DNA of 64,000 bases. It comes from a virus. The stretch is taken from IMG/VR virus record IMGVR_UViG_3300046777_001511, positions 4,602 through 68,601 of that record; one strand, given 5' to 3'. Shown piece after piece: positions 7,811-13,992 of the stretch (within the stretch, counting starts at the first letter, position 1; the number at the start of each line of letters is the position of its first letter). A program made the position numbers and the translations under genes. The notes under the pieces were generated by a model. That model did not search any database. It saw only the letters and a list, made by a program, of their open reading frames with translations, and was not told the origin of the DNA.

Positions 7811-8291
7811 TCACTCTATAAGAGTTGATTTAGATTTATCACTGCAACAATACGTTGTAATGGATTTTATGAGTTATTGTTGGGATAAAAGATTAAATCC
7901 TGAAAGCAATTCTATAGAGTTAATAGCTATTGAATTTGATAAAATAATCCCTTACATTTCTTTATTGAGAGAAAAGGGATTACTTTCAGAAAATCAACCA
8001 ACAGATAAGTGGTTAAGTTGTTTTGTAAAAACTAAAAAGAAAAAATCTAAAAATGAGTTCATACCGCCAACGCAAGAAGATGTCATTTCATATTTCAAAG
8101 AAAAAGGGTATTCAGATATTCAAGCCAAAAAAGCGTTTGAATATTATTCTGTGGCTGATTGGAAAGATCGTAACGGCGATAAAGTCGTTAATTGGAAACA
8201 AAAAATGATTGCCAATTGGATGAAAGAAGAACACAAAGTAGTTAATCAGTCTCAATCAGTTTCATTTGAACCAAAAGTTTATAAAAGATGA
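7779..8291 (+). CDS. Replication initiator-like protein
   Basis: C-terminal FIPPT.EDV..YF...F.YY...W...NWK domain; ATGA-coupled to DnaB. Confidence 0.6.
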   Translation: MTKITGLTLINHSIRVDLDLSLQQYVVMDFMSYCWDKRLNPESNSIELIAIEFDKIIPYISLLREKGLLSENQPTDKWLSCFVKTKKKKSKNEFIPPTQEDVISYFKEKGYSDIQAKKAFEYYSVADWKDRNGDKVVNWKQKMIANWMKEEHKVVNQSQSVSFEPKVYKR

Positions 8292-9643
8292 ATGCTCTTC
8301 CTCAAGCAATAGAAATTGAAGCCTTAGTTTTAGGGCAAATACTTTACTTTCCTAAAGCTATGGAAGAAGTGGTTAATGTTTTAACTCCAGAACATTTTCA
8401 TCACCCTTCTCATGCTTTGGTTTATAAATGCTGCAAATGGCTTTACGATACTAAAAAGCCAATAGAAAGCATAACAGTCATTCAGGCACTAAAAGAAAAT
8501 AATTACCTCGAAAAAATAGGAGGAGCTTTTTTTGTAGTAAGTCTAACAAACGATGTGGTTTCTTACGATAGCATTGATAAATACACTGAAATTCTCAGCG
8601 AGAAAAAGATGCTAAGGGAAGTTATAAATGTAGCTTCTACAACACTGGCAGAGGCTTATAATCCAAAATGTGTAGCATCAGAATTAGTTGACAAATACGA
8701 AAAGAATTTAACCGAAATAACCACTAAGTTAACAGGAGATAATCTTTCAAGTTCAAAAGATATTCATAATAAAATGATTGAAAGAAATGCCACGATACTA
8801 AATAATCAAGGCAAACTAGGAGTTACTTCAGGATTTTCGGGCATTGATTCTATTACTTCTGGATGGCAAGAGCCTGATTTAATTATATTGGCAGCACGTC
8901 CTGCAATGGGAAAATCTTCATTAGCAGCTCAGTTAGTTTCTAATCCTGCAATAATACAAGGAAAGTCAGTTGCTTTATTTACTCTTGAAATGTCAACTAT
9001 GCAGTTTTATGCTAGAATGCAATCCCAACAAAGCGGAATAGCTGTAGAAAAGATATTAAGAACAGGATTAAATGAATATGAATTAACTCAATTAAATACA
9101 TCATGCGAACCTCTTAAAAACTCCCCTATTTACATTGATGATACTCCGGGTATATCTATATTCGATTTAAGAAATAAATGCCGTAAATTAAAAAGAGATA
9201 AGAATTTAGGGCTAATTGTTATTGATTACTTGCAATTAGTTACCGTTCCTGATCACAAAGGCAATAGAGAGCAAGAAATAGGGATGATTTCACGCTCATT
9301 AAAGAACTTAGCAAAAGAATTAAACATTCCAATTATAGCGCTTTCCCAATTAAGCAGAGCAGTTGAATCTAGGGCAGACAAAAGACCTTTGTTATCTGAC
9401 CTGAGAGAATCAGGATCAATAGAAATGGATGCAGATATTGTTTCTTTCTTATATCGCCCCGAATATTATGGTATCATGCAGGATGACAGAGGAAACCCAA
9501 CATCAGGAATGGCTATGCTAATTATAGCTAAACACAGGAACGGGCCATTGGCAGATATCATGTTATCATTCGAGCACGATAAAACTAAATTTACTGATTA
9601 TCAGCACAATAGCATGTATGGTAAAAAAAATATTACTTTTTAA
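8288..9643 (+). CDS. dnaB: Replicative DNA helicase DnaB
   Basis: AARPAMGKS, IDYLQL, LSQLSR, DLRESGSIEMDAD, IAKHRNG. Confidence 0.97.
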   Translation: MNALPQAIEIEALVLGQILYFPKAMEEVVNVLTPEHFHHPSHALVYKCCKWLYDTKKPIESITVIQALKENNYLEKIGGAFFVVSLTNDVVSYDSIDKYTEILSEKKMLREVINVASTTLAEAYNPKCVASELVDKYEKNLTEITTKLTGDNLSSSKDIHNKMIERNATILNNQGKLGVTSGFSGIDSITSGWQEPDLIILAARPAMGKSSLAAQLVSNPAIIQGKSVALFTLEMSTMQFYARMQSQQSGIAVEKILRTGLNEYELTQLNTSCEPLKNSPIYIDDTPGISIFDLRNKCRKLKRDKNLGLIVIDYLQLVTVPDHKGNREQEIGMISRSLKNLAKELNIPIIALSQLSRAVESRADKRPLLSDLRESGSIEMDADIVSFLYRPEYYGIMQDDRGNPTSGMAMLIIAKHRNGPLADIMLSFEHDKTKFTDYQHNSMYGKKNITF

Positions 9644-9654
9644 TTAAAAATTTG

Positions 9655-9662
9655 TAACTTTG
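9655..9662 (+). promoter_or_regulatory. Bacteroidetes -7 promoter element
   Basis: TAACTTTG in the intergenic gap upstream of 9702. Confidence 0.5.
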
Positions 9663-9701
9663 TACAAATTCTTACGTTAAACATTATAAAAACTATCAAA
9701 C

Positions 9702-10211
9702 ATGAAAAAATTAATCACAACAGCTTTATTGTTAGCAAGGCTTACAGTTAGCGCACAAACTCCACTAGAAGAAAGATACGATGTATTTGACAGCATCTCT
9801 AGTGATGGAATTGATTTCATAGCAAAATTCGAGGGAGCATTTGTAAATTCTGAAAACAGAAATGATACAATTGTTGTTTACCCTTACATTTCTTACTATG
9901 AGTTTGAAGGATTTAAAATCGAAGGCATTTGGCTTCATTTTTTGAATAAATTTGAGAAAGTAAAAAATGTTGATTTTATTTTTGAAAAAGAAACAATAGC
10001 TTTACATGCTTGCAAATCTCAGGATCAAACTAAATTTGATAAAAAATATATCATATCAGCAAACAGCAAAGTTAGTCCTGATGCTTTTTTTACTCCTCTA
10101 TATATGATTAACTTTAACGGAAAATCATATATTCCTATCAACAATGGCGATGTGTATTTTATATACATGCTTAATGTAATTGAAAATTTAAAGTCTAACT
10201 GGTTAAAATAA
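9702..10211 (+). CDS. Secreted/periplasmic hypothetical protein
   Basis: Signal peptide MKKLITTALLL...VSA|Q, typical of Bacteroidetes. Confidence 0.6.
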   Translation: MKKLITTALLLARLTVSAQTPLEERYDVFDSISSDGIDFIAKFEGAFVNSENRNDTIVVYPYISYYEFEGFKIEGIWLHFLNKFEKVKNVDFIFEKETIALHACKSQDQTKFDKKYIISANSKVSPDAFFTPLYMINFNGKSYIPINNGDVYFIYMLNVIENLKSNWLK

Positions 10212-10228
10212 TTAAAACAAAAACTATC

Positions 10229-10567
10229 ATGAAAACAGCAATTGAACTACAAGCCATGATTGATGCTTTAAGAATCAATATGGAAACAGAAGAAGGCAGA
10301 AAGATTGAATCTAACATTTGCCCTGAATGGAGCTTTAGATTTATGCCTGACAACAAAATTATCGTAGAATGTAAATATGTTTCTAAACATAAAGACATTA
10401 AGATTTTTTATGGCGACAATGATGAGCCGGGATGGAGAGAAGAAGTTCAGCATAGCGCTATGGCATTTGAATTTGAATCAGAAGATTTAGATACTTTTGT
10501 AGAGGAGGTTAGTAACATATTGTTTGATTTATTATTTATAAATTTAGGTTATGGGGAAATTATTTAG
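10229..10567 (+). CDS. Acidic hypothetical protein
   Basis: ORF preceded by the AAAACTATCA motif. Confidence 0.6.
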   Translation: MKTAIELQAMIDALRINMETEEGRKIESNICPEWSFRFMPDNKIIVECKYVSKHKDIKIFYGDNDEPGWREEVQHSAMAFEFESEDLDTFVEEVSNILFDLLFINLGYGEII

Positions 10568-10673
10568 TTTGTCAAGATCCATTGATTGGTGGACAAAAAA
10601 ATCAGAAAACAGCGTTAGACAATCTTTTAACATAGAATTGTACATGAAGATTATTAAAATGAGAGGCTTATAA
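10551..10673 (+). CDS. Small hypothetical protein (40 aa) ending at the first TAAC junction
   Basis: MGKLFSLSRSIDWW...MRGL*; its TAA stop is the TAA of TAAC 10671-10674. Confidence 0.55.
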   Translation: MGKLFSLSRSIDWWTKKSENSVRQSFNIELYMKIIKMRGL

Positions 10674-10796
10674 CGGTAGGCGGCTAAACGAGGTGGCTGA
10701 TTGACACCTTGAAACTTAATTAAAATAACGAAATTATGAATACAGAAAAAACTTCATTAGAAAAAGAAAGTCAGACATCTTGTTTAGGTGCTGTTA
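10671..10796 (+). repeat. attC-like hairpin J1 (126 bp)
   Basis: TAAC, 5 nt, arm 10680-10702 pairing with arm 10769-10791, T, GTTA. Confidence 0.75.
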
Positions 10797-10975
10797 TAGG
10801 CTGTAAATTTTTTCTCATAATGGCTTTACAAAGAGGCTATAATGCAGATATACCACACAGACTATATTTAACAGAAGAAGATGCAAAAAAAGTCGCAGAT
10901 GAACACAATAGGAATTACGATGTAAAATGGGTTGTAAAAGAGGTGAAGTTCGATGAAAAAATTTATTGCCTATAA
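10736..10975 (+). CDS. Cassette 1 hypothetical protein
   Basis: Starts in the J1 loop; its stop is the TAA of TAAC 10973. Confidence 0.6.
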   Translation: MNTEKTSLEKESQTSCLGAVIGCKFFLIMALQRGYNADIPHRLYLTEEDAKKVADEHNRNYDVKWVVKEVKFDEKIYCL

Positions 10976-11076
10976 CGTTTTGCAGCTTTGAGCCGTTTAA
11001 ACGAATATTAATTTAAAACAATAATTAACGAATATGAATAACAAGGAAATAGAAAATGGCTTCAAAGGTGCTGTTA
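10973..11076 (+). repeat. attC-like hairpin J2 (104 bp)
   Basis: TAAC, 5 nt, GCAGCTTTGAGCCGTTT pairing with AAATGGCTTCAAAGGTGC, T, GTTA. Confidence 0.75.
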
Positions 11077-11246
11077 GCGGTAGTTTGAGGGAACAATCTC
11101 TTGAATGGTTTTTCGCAAAAAGTGAAATTGAGAAACACGATTTAAAAGACAAACACTTTCCAAACACACCAATACAGCATAGTAGGCAATGGGGATTTCA
11201 TTTCACTTTTGGTCAAATTGAGGAAATGTATGTTAAAGAACGGTAG
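11034..11246 (+). CDS. Cassette 2 hypothetical protein
   Basis: Starts in the J2 loop and reads GAVSG across GTTA. Confidence 0.6.
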   Translation: MNNKEIENGFKGAVSGSLREQSLEWFFAKSEIEKHDLKDKHFPNTPIQHSRQWGFHFTFGQIEEMYVKER

Positions 11247-11257
11247 CAAATTACCGC

Positions 11258-11344
11258 TAACGGATGGGTATTTGCGAAGTTGCCCTTGCAGATACTTCAA
11301 ATTAAGCACAAATGTTGATGGGCAATTTTGCAAATACCTTGTTA
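11258..11344 (+). repeat. attC-like hairpin J3 (87 bp)
   Basis: TAAC, 5 nt, GGTATTTGCGAAGTTGCCC pairing with GGGCAATTTTGCAAATACC, TT, GTTA. Confidence 0.8.
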
Positions 11345-11407
11345 CCTGCTGGTGCGGTTAATTAGGACAAAACTTAAATACGGAGAACTAAAAAAACTTT
11401 TATTAAA

Positions 11408-12268
11408 ATGAGCAAAGGAAAAAAAGAAATATTGTTTGGAGATTGTTTGGACTTGATGAAAACCATTAATGATAATAGCATTGATTTGGTTTTTACATCA
11501 CCGCCTTACGCTGAACGCAGAAAAGCAACATACGGAGGCACAAATGAGAATGAATATGTTGATTGGTTTTTACCGATTGGAGCAGAGATAAAACGCATTT
11601 TGAAACCTACTGGCAGTTTCTTTTTAAACATAAAGCCACATACCAACAACGGAGAAAGAAGCCTGTATGTTTATGATTTGATTTGCCAACTGAAAAGAGA
11701 AACGGGCTTTATGTTTGTTGAAGAATATTGTTGGACTAAAAATGCTTTTCCAGGCAGTTTGAAAGGAAGGTTTAAAAATGCGTTTGAGCCGATATACCAC
11801 TTTACAAAAAACTCACCGAATAAAATCACATTTAACCCTGTGGCTTGCGGAACACCGATAAAGGAAGAAAGTATTGCAAGGACTTACAGAAAGCAATGTG
11901 GAGCACCTAAAAACGGAAGCGGAATGACTGGAATGAATACCACTAACATACGGAACTTAGGACTTGCAAGACCTTCAAATGTGATAAATGTGAATAACGT
12001 AAGCAACCAATTTTCAGATAAGCAACTACACCCTGCTACATTTCCCGAAGGATTGGTTGAGTTTTTTGTAAAATCATTTACGAATGAAGGCGATATTGTG
12101 TTGGACCCGTTTGGAGGAAGCGGAACTGTTGCTTTAACGTGTGTAAAAACCAAAAGACAATTTATACTTATGGAAAAACAAGAACAATATTTTGAACTCA
12201 TTAAAAAGCGGGTGGGAGATTTTAATAAAAGTTTTTTAACGGAACTTCCATTTGAAAACGAAATGTAG
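11408..12268 (+). CDS. Beta-class DNA amino-methyltransferase (N4-C/N6-A), cassette 3
   Basis: FTSPPY catalytic motif before HPATFP and the DPFGGSGT SAM motif; SPPY favours m4C. Confidence 0.92.
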   Translation: MSKGKKEILFGDCLDLMKTINDNSIDLVFTSPPYAERRKATYGGTNENEYVDWFLPIGAEIKRILKPTGSFFLNIKPHTNNGERSLYVYDLICQLKRETGFMFVEEYCWTKNAFPGSLKGRFKNAFEPIYHFTKNSPNKITFNPVACGTPIKEESIARTYRKQCGAPKNGSGMTGMNTTNIRNLGLARPSNVINVNNVSNQFSDKQLHPATFPEGLVEFFVKSFTNEGDIVLDPFGGSGTVALTCVKTKRQFILMEKQEQYFELIKKRVGDFNKSFLTELPFENEM

Positions 12269-12330
12269 CACTTGCAGGTAACTTACTTCTTTGCGCTACT
12301 TTATAGCGCCTTATATACATAAATTACATT

Positions 12331-12900
12331 ATGAGCAAAAAACAATCAATATCCGAAGAAACATTATTAAAGATGGGACTTCATCGTAATGCTGATGGTT
12401 CCTACTCAAAAGCTAAAACAACATTGCAACCTCGCGAAAAAGAACAAGTAGTAGTTAAAAATAATGAGTTAAGAAAAATAACTATTACTTTGTTCGGCGA
12501 GCCTATGGCAAAACAATCTGTTAGATCCACAAAGTCAGGACACTTTTTTCAGCCTAAAAAATATGTTGACAAAGAAAAAGATTATAGGAATCAAATAGCT
12601 AAACAGCTACCAAAAGATTTTGTAATGTTTACAGAAGAAGCTAGGATACTTAAATTGCATTTTATTTATCCTCCATTAAAAGCTTTCCATAAAATAAAAG
12701 GACGAATGGAGCAAATAAGAGATGGAATATTGTTTCCAAAAACAACTAAGCCAGATGTATGTGATAACTTAAAAAAATTAGTTTTAGATTCCATGAGTAA
12801 ATTAGTTTATTCTGACGATAGCATAATTTGGGCTGAAGATAATGTTAGGAAATTTTACGGAACAGGAGGATGTACCATAATTGAAATAGAAGGAAAATGA
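12331..12900 (+). CDS. rusA: RusA-family Holliday junction resolvase
   Basis: GEPMAKQSVR, KPDVCDNLKK.VLD, DDS motifs. Confidence 0.85.
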   Translation: MSKKQSISEETLLKMGLHRNADGSYSKAKTTLQPREKEQVVVKNNELRKITITLFGEPMAKQSVRSTKSGHFFQPKKYVDKEKDYRNQIAKQLPKDFVMFTEEARILKLHFIYPPLKAFHKIKGRMEQIRDGILFPKTTKPDVCDNLKKLVLDSMSKLVYSDDSIIWAEDNVRKFYGTGGCTIIEIEGK

Positions 12901-13577
12901 ATAAAGAGTGGTTAGACTTTATAAATGCTGAAATACAAAAAGACTACATGGTTAGTCTTAAATCTTTTATTGATTTCGAAAGACAATCTAATGTAGTTTA
13001 TCCTGCGGCAAACATTACTTTTAATCACATGAATTTTTGTCCATACGATAAACTTAAAGTAGTCATTATAGGAAATGCTCCATTTTGCGAAAACGTCAAC
13101 GATGGTCTTGCTTTTTCTGCCTATGGACACATTCATCCAGAAGATAACAAAAACATCATATACGAGGCTTTTAGGGATTATTTTAAGGCATGGAATAATA
13201 CTAGCGAAATTAAAAACAAACTATACCCTACAGGACAATTAACTGAATGGGCTAAACAAGGAGTTTTACTGATTAATTCAATTTATACTTGCACCGATAA
13301 AGATAGATTTTCTCACAAGAACAAAGGATGGGAAACATTTAACGAAAACCTTATTGAAAAATTAAATGATTATCACTTACCATTAGTATTTATTAATAAG
13401 TGTACTATTAAAGATTATACTAATAAAATTAATCCAAGAAAACATTTAATTATTAATGGCAATGATGCTAATTGGTGCACTAAAGCTAATGAGTTTATTC
13501 GCAATAGGAAAGTACCAATAGACCAACAGCATCATCAGTTAAAGATTAATTGGATGACAAAGCCTTTAAATGTTTAA
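12897..13577 (+). CDS. Uracil-DNA glycosylase family 1 homolog, catalytic motifs degenerate
   Basis: KVVIIGNAPF (vs GQDPY), GLAFS, WAKQGVLLIN, SH..KGWETF; HPSPLS absent. Confidence 0.8.
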   Translation: MNKEWLDFINAEIQKDYMVSLKSFIDFERQSNVVYPAANITFNHMNFCPYDKLKVVIIGNAPFCENVNDGLAFSAYGHIHPEDNKNIIYEAFRDYFKAWNNTSEIKNKLYPTGQLTEWAKQGVLLINSIYTCTDKDRFSHKNKGWETFNENLIEKLNDYHLPLVFINKCTIKDYTNKINPRKHLIINGNDANWCTKANEFIRNRKVPIDQQHHQLKINWMTKPLNV

Positions 13578-13992
13578 GCCCAATTATAACATCTGTGTAA
13601 ATTGCAATCAGCAGCGATTAATCGTTGTCAAGAAGGGATTGTGTAAATTCTGCAATCAATCTAAAAAAGGTAAAACAAAAGTTAAAATAAAACCTAAAAA
13701 GAAATCCGGTGAACTAAATATGTTTAAAGAATTATCTGAAGAAAAACAAAACAATGTTTGTCAATGCTGCAAAACTTTAATCCCTAGTTTATCACCAATT
13801 AATTTCAGTCACGTTCTCAGTAAAGGAGCTTATCCTTGTTATAGACTAGATAAAAGAAACATATTTATTGTTTGTGATAATTGTCATCATCAGTGGGAAT
13901 TTGGAGACAGGAATCAGCCTAAGTTTGCTTTTAAAAGAGACGTGGCTCAAATGCTTAAAGAGGAGTACTATAAAACAAAAAGCGGAAAATAA
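13570..13992 (+). CDS. Zn-finger HNH/NinG-like nuclease
   Basis: CxxC pairs, SH.LSKG, RN...VCDNCH. Confidence 0.7.
   Translation: MFKPNYNICVNCNQQRLIVVKKGLCKFCNQSKKGKTKVKIKPKKKSGELNMFKELSEEKQNNVCQCCKTLIPSLSPINFSHVLSKGAYPCYRLDKRNIFIVCDNCHHQWEFGDRNQPKFAFKRDVAQMLKEEYYKTKSGK

Follow-up and report, generated by a model that had tools for sequence, protein, structure and literature searches.

Gene content of the locus

The window, by which we mean the whole 64,000-nt stretch of viral DNA that was analyzed, was taken from a 68.6-kb IMG/VR virus record (IMGVR_UViG_3300046777_001511), and its + strand carries early and replication genes encoding a SNF2-type helicase, DnaB, an N6/N4 methyltransferase, RusA, and a UDG-like protein. 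Three hairpin sites, J1, J2, and J3, lie inside 674 nt of the window, from 10671 to 11344, with a methyltransferase gene behind the last of them and a TAAC at 12279–12282 marking the end of the region (Table 1). The stretch from 10671 to 12282 is best explained as an array of three gene cassettes of the integron type, in a record without a recombinase of its own, and its setting as the early-gene region of a phage whose host belongs to the phylum Bacteroidota. The tyrosine recombinase profile PF00589 gave no match anywhere in the 68.6-kb record. With at least two sites and no integrase nearby, J1–J3 have the composition by which a CALIN is defined, provided that the sites are counted as attC.

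The ATG of the 40-aa ORF on the backbone side follows immediately on a GTT. The cassette bodies carry terminal inverted repeats by which the core is prolonged. The cassette-1 ORF begins with a leader of 20 codons, the last of which is the GTT encoding Val20, and the cassette-2 ORF contains a TTG at codon 18 and stops on a TAG (11244–11246) located 12 nt ahead of the TAAC at 11258 and not on the TAAC itself. The methyltransferase has its own start, 64 nt past the end of the GTTA of J3. Searches of Pfam and PHROGs returned no family for either small cassette protein, for the 40-aa ORF, or for the two ORFs upstream of it. With blastn against GenBank phages, no match was obtained for 9600–12400, and J1 alone gave only short, AT-rich chance matches at E ≤ 1. 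Contigs from an RNA-library run (X15) cover the methyltransferase only and not the leaders. In X3, the contig joint between 10811 and 10958 may be an artifact caused during assembly by the 22-nt inverted repeat of cassette 1, and it was not used as evidence.

Table 1 Features of the array and its upstream border in the window
Feature	Position	Strand	Remarks
40-aa ORF, backbone side	10551..10673	+	Stop is the TAA of the TAAC of J1
J1, attC-like hairpin site, 126 nt	10671..10796	+	Leader-bearing loop; TAAC 10671–10674, GTTA 10793–10796
Putative cassette unit 1 (J1 + body 1)	10674..10975	+	C of the J1 TAAC through TAA of the J2 TAAC
Cassette-1 ORF, 79 aa	10736..10975	+	ATG in the loop of J1; stop is the TAA of the TAAC of J2
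Cassette-1 terminal inverted repeat, 5′ arm	10793..10814	.	Pairs with 10955–10976; 22 nt, 91% complementary
Cassette-1 terminal inverted repeat, 3′ arm	10955..10976	.	Pairs with 10793–10814
J2, attC-like hairpin site, 104 nt	10973..11076	+	Shorter variant, conserved ends kept; TAAC 10973–10976, GTTA 11073–11076
Cassette-2 ORF, 70 aa	11034..11246	+	ATG in the loop of J2; GTT encodes Val14
Cassette-2 terminal inverted repeat, 5′ arm	11073..11087	.	Pairs with 11247–11261; 15 nt, 93% complementary
Cassette-2 terminal inverted repeat, 3′ arm	11247..11261	.	Pairs with 11073–11087
J3, attC-like hairpin site, 87 nt	11258..11344	+	Other subclass, without leader ORF; TAAC/GTTA ends
Cassette-3 body	11341..12282	+	Starts GTTACCTGC, ends GCAGGTAAC, a short terminal inverted repeat; read from the sequence
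N6/N4 DNA methyltransferase, 286 aa	11408..12268	+	PF01555 1.5e-45; phrog_67 1.5e-62

Structure of the hairpin sites

Folding of the three sites as RNA gave −37.45 kcal/mol (z −4.5) for the + strand of J1 against −22.9 for its − strand, −26.15 kcal/mol (z −2.4) against −15.2 (z −0.2) for J2, and −35.7 kcal/mol (z −4.1) against −28.3 for J3; as DNA, J2 folds only modestly better than shuffled sequences (z −1.2). A covariance model (R1) was built from 51 family copies, mutually less than 85% alike, with J1 in the training set and J2 outside it. The model scored J1, a training member, at 101.9 bits, and it recovered J2 (58.8 bits, E 2e-13) and J3 (24.1 bits, E 6e-4) on the + strand at the exact junction coordinates. 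Across the 64 kb, nothing beyond J1–J3 fell below E 0.1.

In the 51 copies, 95.5% of cells are paired compared to 73.4% in shuffles, double-sided changes occur in 216 cells compared to 67 in shuffles, compensatory change is found at 13 of the 15 main-stem pairs, and the covariation score of 0.53 drops to at most 0.12 when the partners are slid. The structure is under selection and strand-specific. TAAC and GTTA are invariant and paired in all 51 aligned copies, in the manner of the inverted core boxes of attC sites. Inside these ends, the site consists of a 7-nt unpaired stretch in the 5′ arm, a 3-bp L-like helix that is 94% paired, and a 3-nt GGT bulge in the 3′ arm, beyond which lie a covarying 15-bp stem and a variable loop. 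The loops cannot be aligned between subfamilies, so that the structure is kept and the sequence and loop vary as they do in attC, with ends that are unusually conserved. A G·U wobble (G·T in DNA) is retained in 48 of the 51 copies, and since the complementary strand has C·A mismatches at these positions, the + strand folds far better than the − strand. Fold energies and the retained wobble both give the sites the strand asymmetry of attC, with the folding strand presumably being the one that is cut.

Over the window, Rfam had no match that reached the gathering score, over 10400–12400 it had none at E ≤ 1, and ARAGORN found no tRNA; given these negatives, assignment to a known structured RNA is unsupported. 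A group I intron or other large ornate RNA over 10570–11400 was also considered and dropped, as the units are modular and widespread.

A family of sites in Bacteroidota and their phages

A search pattern consisting of the two exact conserved ends retrieved at least 120 matching stretches each from the viral and the genome collections, a sample biased to one subclass because it was drawn with this exact end motif. Nearly all genome records among the matches listed are titled as Bacteroidota, and their orders include Flavobacteriales, Chitinophagales, Sphingobacteriales, Cytophagales, and Bacteroidales. The length distribution is narrow: of 337 distinct copies among the matches listed, 155 are 126 nt long and 246 fall between 125 and 127 nt, with shorter forms of the site (40–96 nt) also present. 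When 201 genomes sampled evenly over the phylum were searched, 12 contained an exact-pattern copy (the query genome, G001, included), and the reversed pattern, used as a control, was found in none of the same 201.

The viral members were also reached from the protein side. Searching with the 79-aa cassette-1 protein led to 16 viral loci, nine of which match only residues 1–21 or 1–22, that is, the leader, and in the DNA of those loci an element of about 125 nt is conserved exactly from TAAC to GTTA between unrelated flanks. In 15 other viral contigs, unrelated flanks surround copies of J1 that are 77–89% identical, and a 100% copy is present in another viral locus (L002). The hairpins of the window are members of a large family of ~126-nt sites in Bacteroidota chromosomes and the phages of this phylum.

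Cassette orientation and the associated recombinase

In the bacterial loci, the sites form tightly packed arrays in which each site is accompanied by one ORF, encoded on the other strand. Among the matches listed, the bodies are on the opposite strand to the site in 74 genome loci and on the same strand in nine, whereas in viral loci they are on the same strand in 79 cases and on the opposite one in four. The viral gene is hence preceded by its site, and the strand that folds well corresponds to the mRNA. The phage cassette is the reverse of the bacterial layout, with the site followed by the ORF instead of the ORF followed by the site.

A tyrosine recombinase adjoins the array and points into it in three of the five genomes examined, being in each of the three the best IntI-like tyrosine recombinase of that genome, and a fragment of one was found in a fourth. 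This recombinase passes the cut-off of NF040815, ‘tyrosine recombinase/integron integrase’ (239.5 bits, cut-off 220), and lies under that of TIGR02249, the integron-integrase subfamily (226.5 bits, cut-off 265). It aligns to residues 8–213 and 243–318 of the structurally solved Vibrio integrase VchIntIA, residues 214–242 having no counterpart, and for a stretch of 59 model positions the top match of each of the five genomes has only 15–21 residues. Next to the bacterial arrays, the recombinases are short of ~40 residues of the IntI-specific insertion, and the loci do not have the adjacent IntI with additional domain by which a complete integron is recognized; with this insertion missing, we use the term integron-like for the system and stop short of classing it as an integron. 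Among the matches listed, homologues of the recombinase were found at 16 of 120 element-centered genome loci and nine of 151 viral loci, and in one of the viral loci (L029, positions 8157–8951) the homologue directly follows the phage array. The location of bacterial arrays beside an Xer/IntI-like recombinase is the reason for regarding J1–J3 as attC-like sites and the window as carrying a three-cassette array. Since the insertion is missing and the phage record is devoid of a tyrosine recombinase, integron-type recombination is used here as an analogy, according to which a recombinase of this kind would act on these sites.

Putative start codons in the loops and the predicted leaders

The initial annotation had placed the start codons of both small cassette genes in the loops of J1 and J2, and had both ORFs crossing the right arm in the frame in which the GTT of GTTA is read as Val. 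Both points hold. The ATGs at 10736 and 11034 are wholly unpaired in the + strand folds, as RNA and as DNA, in loops of 66 and 55 nt, respectively, and both ORFs read GGT GCT GTT, or G-A-V, over the right arm (CLGAV|IG and FKGAV|SG). Its observation that the 40-aa gene and cassette 1 stop on the TAA of TAAC was likewise borne out and extends to the family, in which 60 of 184 viral cases among the matches listed have an upstream ORF that closes on this TAA.

The generality of the arrangement was assessed by comparing 147 long viral sites to 120 genome sites among the matches listed (Table 2). When sites were counted by the frame in which an ATG opens a run of at least 10 codons reaching the right end, the three frames gave 110, 14, and 20 viral sites and 5, 8, and 22 genome sites. 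Leaders in the family are mostly 14–25 codons long, with 20 and 14 codons in cassettes 1 and 2 of the window, and they are hydrophilic and of many unrelated sequence types that converge on G-A-V at their ends. The 25 nt ahead of 110 leader ATGs contain 53% A and 7% G, with an A at −3 in 86%. Such an A-rich, G-poor upstream region would fit Shine-Dalgarno-independent initiation in Bacteroidota. From these frame statistics alone, we infer that translation begins at the loop ATG.

Table 2 Reading frames across long viral sites and genome sites, among the matches listed
Property	Viral sites	Genome sites
In-frame loop ATG	111/147	9/120
GTT frame open for at least 40 codons	108/147	22/120
Frame +1 open for at least 40 codons	18/147	20/120
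Frame +2 open for at least 40 codons	4/147	9/120
Loop ATG and open GTT frame together	100/147	3/120

A different reading of the same ORFs is that the leaders are not translated and that the starts lie at or after GTTA, on a GTT-ATG, an internal ATG, or a TTG, the open GTT frame being a by-product of constraints on the arm. The arm sequence is indeed constrained by pairing, an ATG immediately follows GTT in 19 of 100 leader ORFs, and body 1 contains an internal ATG (M29) that is the annotated start of two database homologues (P0005 and P0006). We nevertheless judge this reading unlikely, since bacterial sites are under the same arm constraints, yet in-frame loop ATGs are found in so few of them compared to phage sites (9/120 and 111/147), and since the other two frames are rarely open in phage sites. 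It also fits poorly with the composition ahead of the ATG and with the 23 of 100 leader ORFs that have no later in-frame ATG within the 300 nt examined. For cassette 2, a homologue in another viral locus (L020) has no hairpin and has an N-terminus of its own that reaches upstream of the region of homology, indicating that the cassette-2 body needs an upstream start. That any cassette open in the GTT frame would gain expression on insertion, as the initial annotation proposed, is not supported here. Not every cassette follows this arrangement, as the cassette of J3 and the methyltransferase, and short sites of 49–96 nt, have no leader and their own start and occur in the same arrays as leader-bearing sites.

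The only near-invariant columns among 92 otherwise unrelated leader-fused proteins are M, G, A, and V. On the level of sequence, the initial annotation is upheld in seeing at the junction a start codon with a short leader that continues in frame into unrelated bodies, and ‘portable start plus leader’ fairly describes what the sites encode.

The probable mobile unit and its breakpoints

Two viral loci (L002 and L022) share positions 10672–10976, that is, J1 and body 1, with the window at 99.3% identity, with unrelated flanks on both sides. In L002, the insertion is at a GAAC, with no second hairpin and no flanking homology past the AAC. Loci sharing a body on one side only were then tabulated for co-inheritance of the hairpin at an identity of at least 0.92, in rows that are partly non-independent. 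In 12 of 28 informative rows the hairpin and the downstream body had been inherited together, and none of 10 rows showed joint inheritance with the upstream body alone. The movement of J1 and body 1 into L002 as one unit suggests that the start codon is normally in the cassette's own site, and the downstream and upstream counts suggest that the start is mostly the cassette's own and not borrowed. As the main mode of exchange, the borrowing of a start codon from the upstream cassette, as the initial annotation had it, is not supported by these results.

Whole-unit movement does not account for all of the rows. The same downstream body stands behind a different hairpin in 16 of the 28, and in six of these the body is at least 94% identical while the hairpin is at most 87% identical. 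In one pair of loci (L032 and L066), the bodies are 96% and the hairpins 69% identical, and in L018 cassette 2 is found at 99.5% with a different hairpin ahead. The initial annotation had named, as a check, that homology between cassette proteins should start exactly at the Val codon, and for cassette 1 this is the case: homology begins at the Val/Ile codon in all four leader-bearing homologues of body 1, each with a different leader, and P0002–P0004 have body 1 in common beginning with the V/I codon, each preceded by another leader. Contigs from other metagenomes break from the window at 10675, 10973, 11258, 11340, 11344, and 12282/12283, and an independent metagenome contig has J3 alone, with both flanks different and breaks at 11258 and 11344.

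The 16 rows and the solitary J3 indicate that a single crossover at TAA|C is insufficient for everything, and the different hairpins on the same body, the different leaders, and the contig breaks mark GTTA as a second exchange point. Exchange at GTTA may result from recombination on the top strand or from homologous exchange within the 10 conserved nucleotides of the arm, both being compatible with the data. The further claim of the initial annotation, that reshuffling yields new N-terminal fusions, stands insofar as leader swaps at GTTA are seen, in the six rows and in L018; they are probably less frequent than exchange of the whole unit.

Leader swaps are also what would be expected under the literal form of the initial annotation's model, in which the hairpin would belong to the upstream cassette, in the order ORF then attC of classical integrons, so that any incoming downstream cassette would borrow a context-free start and new N-terminal fusions would be routine. 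The same body behind different leaders (L032/L066 and cassette 2 of L018), the four leaders on body-1 homologues with homology from the V/I codon, and the contig breaks at 11340 and 11344 all fit this model as well. Against the one moved unit in L002, the 0/10 upstream-only compared to 12/28 downstream co-inheritance, and the presence of the leaderless J3 and 49–96-nt sites in shared arrays, we consider it improbable.

The hairpins might instead be mainly RNA elements in the phage, acting in RNase III-type processing, as a stabilizer, or as an insulator with the start region in its loop, with modularity arising by homologous recombination through the conserved 10–14-nt ends, a mechanism proposed for the promoter stem-loops of T4-type phages, instead of through a site-specific recombinase. 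This is in keeping with phage mRNA being the well-folding strand (−37 and −26 kcal/mol) with the start region unpaired, with exchange at both hairpin ends, and with a phage record without a recombinase. In bacteria, on the other hand, the strand bearing the G·T runs antisense to the genes and its conserved structure is thus not a feature of the mRNA, the arrays adjoin a tyrosine recombinase, and the L002 insertion has no flanking homology past AAC. We give this explanation a small share of the probability, slightly more than the two preceding alternatives, and note that a role as RNA element and a role as recombination site are not mutually exclusive.

That the sites are miniature transposable elements of the MITE or PATE type that landed between genes is very improbable. 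Being short, hairpin-forming, numerous, and strand-asymmetric with exact ends, they do look like such elements, yet in arrays each ORF border has one of them, they are inherited along with the neighboring body, the enzyme linked to them is a tyrosine recombinase and not a transposase, and only TAAC is common to both ends as an inverted repeat. MITEs and PATEs are defined by terminal inverted repeats, target-site duplication, and scattering regardless of gene borders. Hairpin elements of the IS200/IS605 type were dropped on the absence of a transposase and on the array layout.

The explanation we favor, and hold to be probable by a modest degree, is that J1–J3 are attC-like sites in a phage cassette that is reversed, with the loop as start region, and that the mobile unit is the hairpin plus the downstream body, exchanged at TAA|C, with less frequent leader swaps at GTTA. 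The variable loop of the site would have been turned into a region for translation initiation that is rich in A, has no Shine-Dalgarno sequence, and leads into an ATG and leader codons. Ribosomes would start in the open loop and read through the 3′ arm (ending in G-A-V) and the GTT core into the body. Exchange of the unit would take place at TAA|C on the folding strand, with the TAA often doubling as the stop of the preceding ORF, and a second, rarer exchange at GTTA would swap leaders between bodies. Within this model, initiation at the loop ATG, the cleavage chemistry, the cut strand, and any role for the leader peptide are features that we infer.

The usual description of an integron cassette is an ORF with the site behind it, expressed from an outside promoter. 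If the favored explanation is true, start region, start codon, and first codons would all come from the site ahead of the gene, and each cassette could be translated on its own in hosts that initiate without Shine-Dalgarno sequences; it would also explain the ‘...GAV’ N-termini common to unrelated small phage proteins.

Comparison with known systems

Phage CALINs, which are clusters of attC sites without an integrase, have been reported by Qi et al. (2023; PMC9892861), whose passages on phage cassettes describe attC sites in divergent directions in a Polaribacter phage (Bacteroidota host) and N6_N4 methyltransferase cargo. The sites studied here resemble attC sites and CALINs in that a hairpin is bounded by ..AAC and GTT.. 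and has an unpaired spacer, bulged bases, and a variable loop, in that one strand folds better, and in that arrays have about one ORF per site, with a unit that would be ORF plus site. Classical attC sites have two single extrahelical bases, and the geometry found here is similar to this and not identical. The differences are that the folding strand is here the coding strand of the phage genes, each with its site on the 5′ side, that the loop holds a start region, an ATG, and a leader, that the linked recombinases are without the IntI-specific insertion, and that exchange also occurs at the GTTA end. Sequence conservation of the site ends greatly exceeds that of classical attC sites, and the lengths cluster tightly at 126 nt.

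The Vibrio cholerae repeats of sedentary chromosomal integrons are attC sites of very uniform length with high mutual identity within a lineage. They differ from the family described here in sequence, host phylum, and recombinase type, and the orientation of the phage genes is opposite. Promoter-early stem-loops of T4-type phages are conserved intergenic elements that flank small accessory genes in a plastic part of the phage genome and have been proposed as drivers of modular shuffling. Those elements combine a promoter with a stem-loop and are not known to contain start codons, unlike the loop ATG found here, and we know of no recombinase-linked bacterial counterpart of them.

A translation start combined with a short ORF across the crossover point has a precedent in the attI1 site of the class 1 integron, where, according to the part of PMC8876359 that deals with them, ORF-11/ORF-18 serve cassettes that have no start region of their own, mostly by translational coupling and with a cassette-supplied stop. 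ORF-11/ORF-18 belong to a single attI site, whereas here the attC-like site of each cassette, borne by a phage, would provide an in-frame N-terminal fusion. Regarding the phylum, the passage on Bacteroidetes in the description of IntegronFinder 2.0 (PMC9024848) lists only In0 elements, the sole kind in its earlier study, and one complete Salinibacter integron. In the main texts of the open-access literature searched, we found no account of start codons in attC loops, of inverted phage cassettes, or of this family of sites in Bacteroidota.

Cassette cargo

Taken beyond the window, the observations allow a wider proposal that we offer tentatively and at somewhat less than even probability: Bacteroidota and their phages would share an undescribed integron-like system, built on a ~126-nt site with conserved ends and an Xer/IntI-like recombinase without the IntI insertion, in which the phage cassette is inverted and its hairpin serves as a portable start and N-terminal leader. 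The phage arrays would then be exchangeable banks of counter-defense genes (methylases, Mom, Lar, and many small proteins without a known family), mirroring the anti-phage cassette banks of bacterial integrons. Such a system would suggest that genes pass between phage and chromosomal arrays within a phylum in which integrons have been considered rare, and the hairpin sites offer a route to phage accessory genes.

The content of the cassettes was examined in the 92 distinct leader-fused phage proteins, which are mostly 60–130 aa long. Pfam named few of them, mostly for DNA modification or anti-restriction, with N6_N4 methylase found in four, C5 methylase in three, and Mom, Lar, Methyltransf_11, and NUMOD4 in one each. 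This composition suggests that the cargo is a bank of counter-defense genes, judging from the sequences that Pfam could name.

A recombinase adjoining bacterial arrays and its phage homologues

On Bacteroidota chromosomes, arrays of the ~126-nt site lie immediately downstream of a co-oriented recombinase resembling Xer and IntI, the integron integrase. The recombinase adjoining these Bacteroidota arrays lacks the IntI-specific insertion, and the arrays together with this insertion-less enzyme may represent an undescribed integron-like class. Homologues of the recombinase are also encoded by some phage contigs; in one (L029) the gene sits immediately after the cassette array, and other phage contigs carrying a homologue of their own are L064, L068/L130 and L071/L114.

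Coordinates of the recombinases, adjoining arrays and cysteine-rich protein gene
Feature	Location	Strand	Remarks
Xer/IntI-like recombinase (bacterial)	L280:1492-2610	-	array sites at L280:30-155 and 846-971
Further Bacteroidota arrays of the ~126-nt site with adjoining recombinase	G003:C10; G005:C53		
Phage homologue of the array-adjoining recombinase	L029:8157-8951	-	264 aa; 168 bits to NF040815 (tyrosine recombinase/integron integrase), under the cut-off
Cysteine-rich protein, 140 aa	window 13570-13992		matched weakly by PHROGs of HNH and NinG/Rap junction endonucleases

Boundaries and possible remnants of the window array

The 3′ end of the array (12279-12330) looks like the point at which the array was inserted. 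RusA starts 48 nt downstream of the closing TAAC and, in another metagenome contig, is joined at 12272 to different sequence. No hairpin follows the TAAC that closes the array. The gene for the cysteine-rich protein adjoins RusA and a UDG-like gene.

Within cassette 1, a high-depth contig from sequencing run X3 joined the arms of the inverted repeat (10811/10958) and omitted the 146 nt between them, a joint that could be either an assembly artefact or an empty cassette.

Elsewhere in the array, GTTA is followed by CCTGCTGGTGCGGTTA (11341-11360), which resembles a second right-arm end; the same motif was found behind sites of two other contigs (L024 and L019), and it may be the remnant of a fused or empty cassette. 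The 40-aa ORF, which may be a former cassette body with a decayed site of its own, is opened by GTT-ATG (10548-10553) immediately behind sequence resembling a degenerate right arm.
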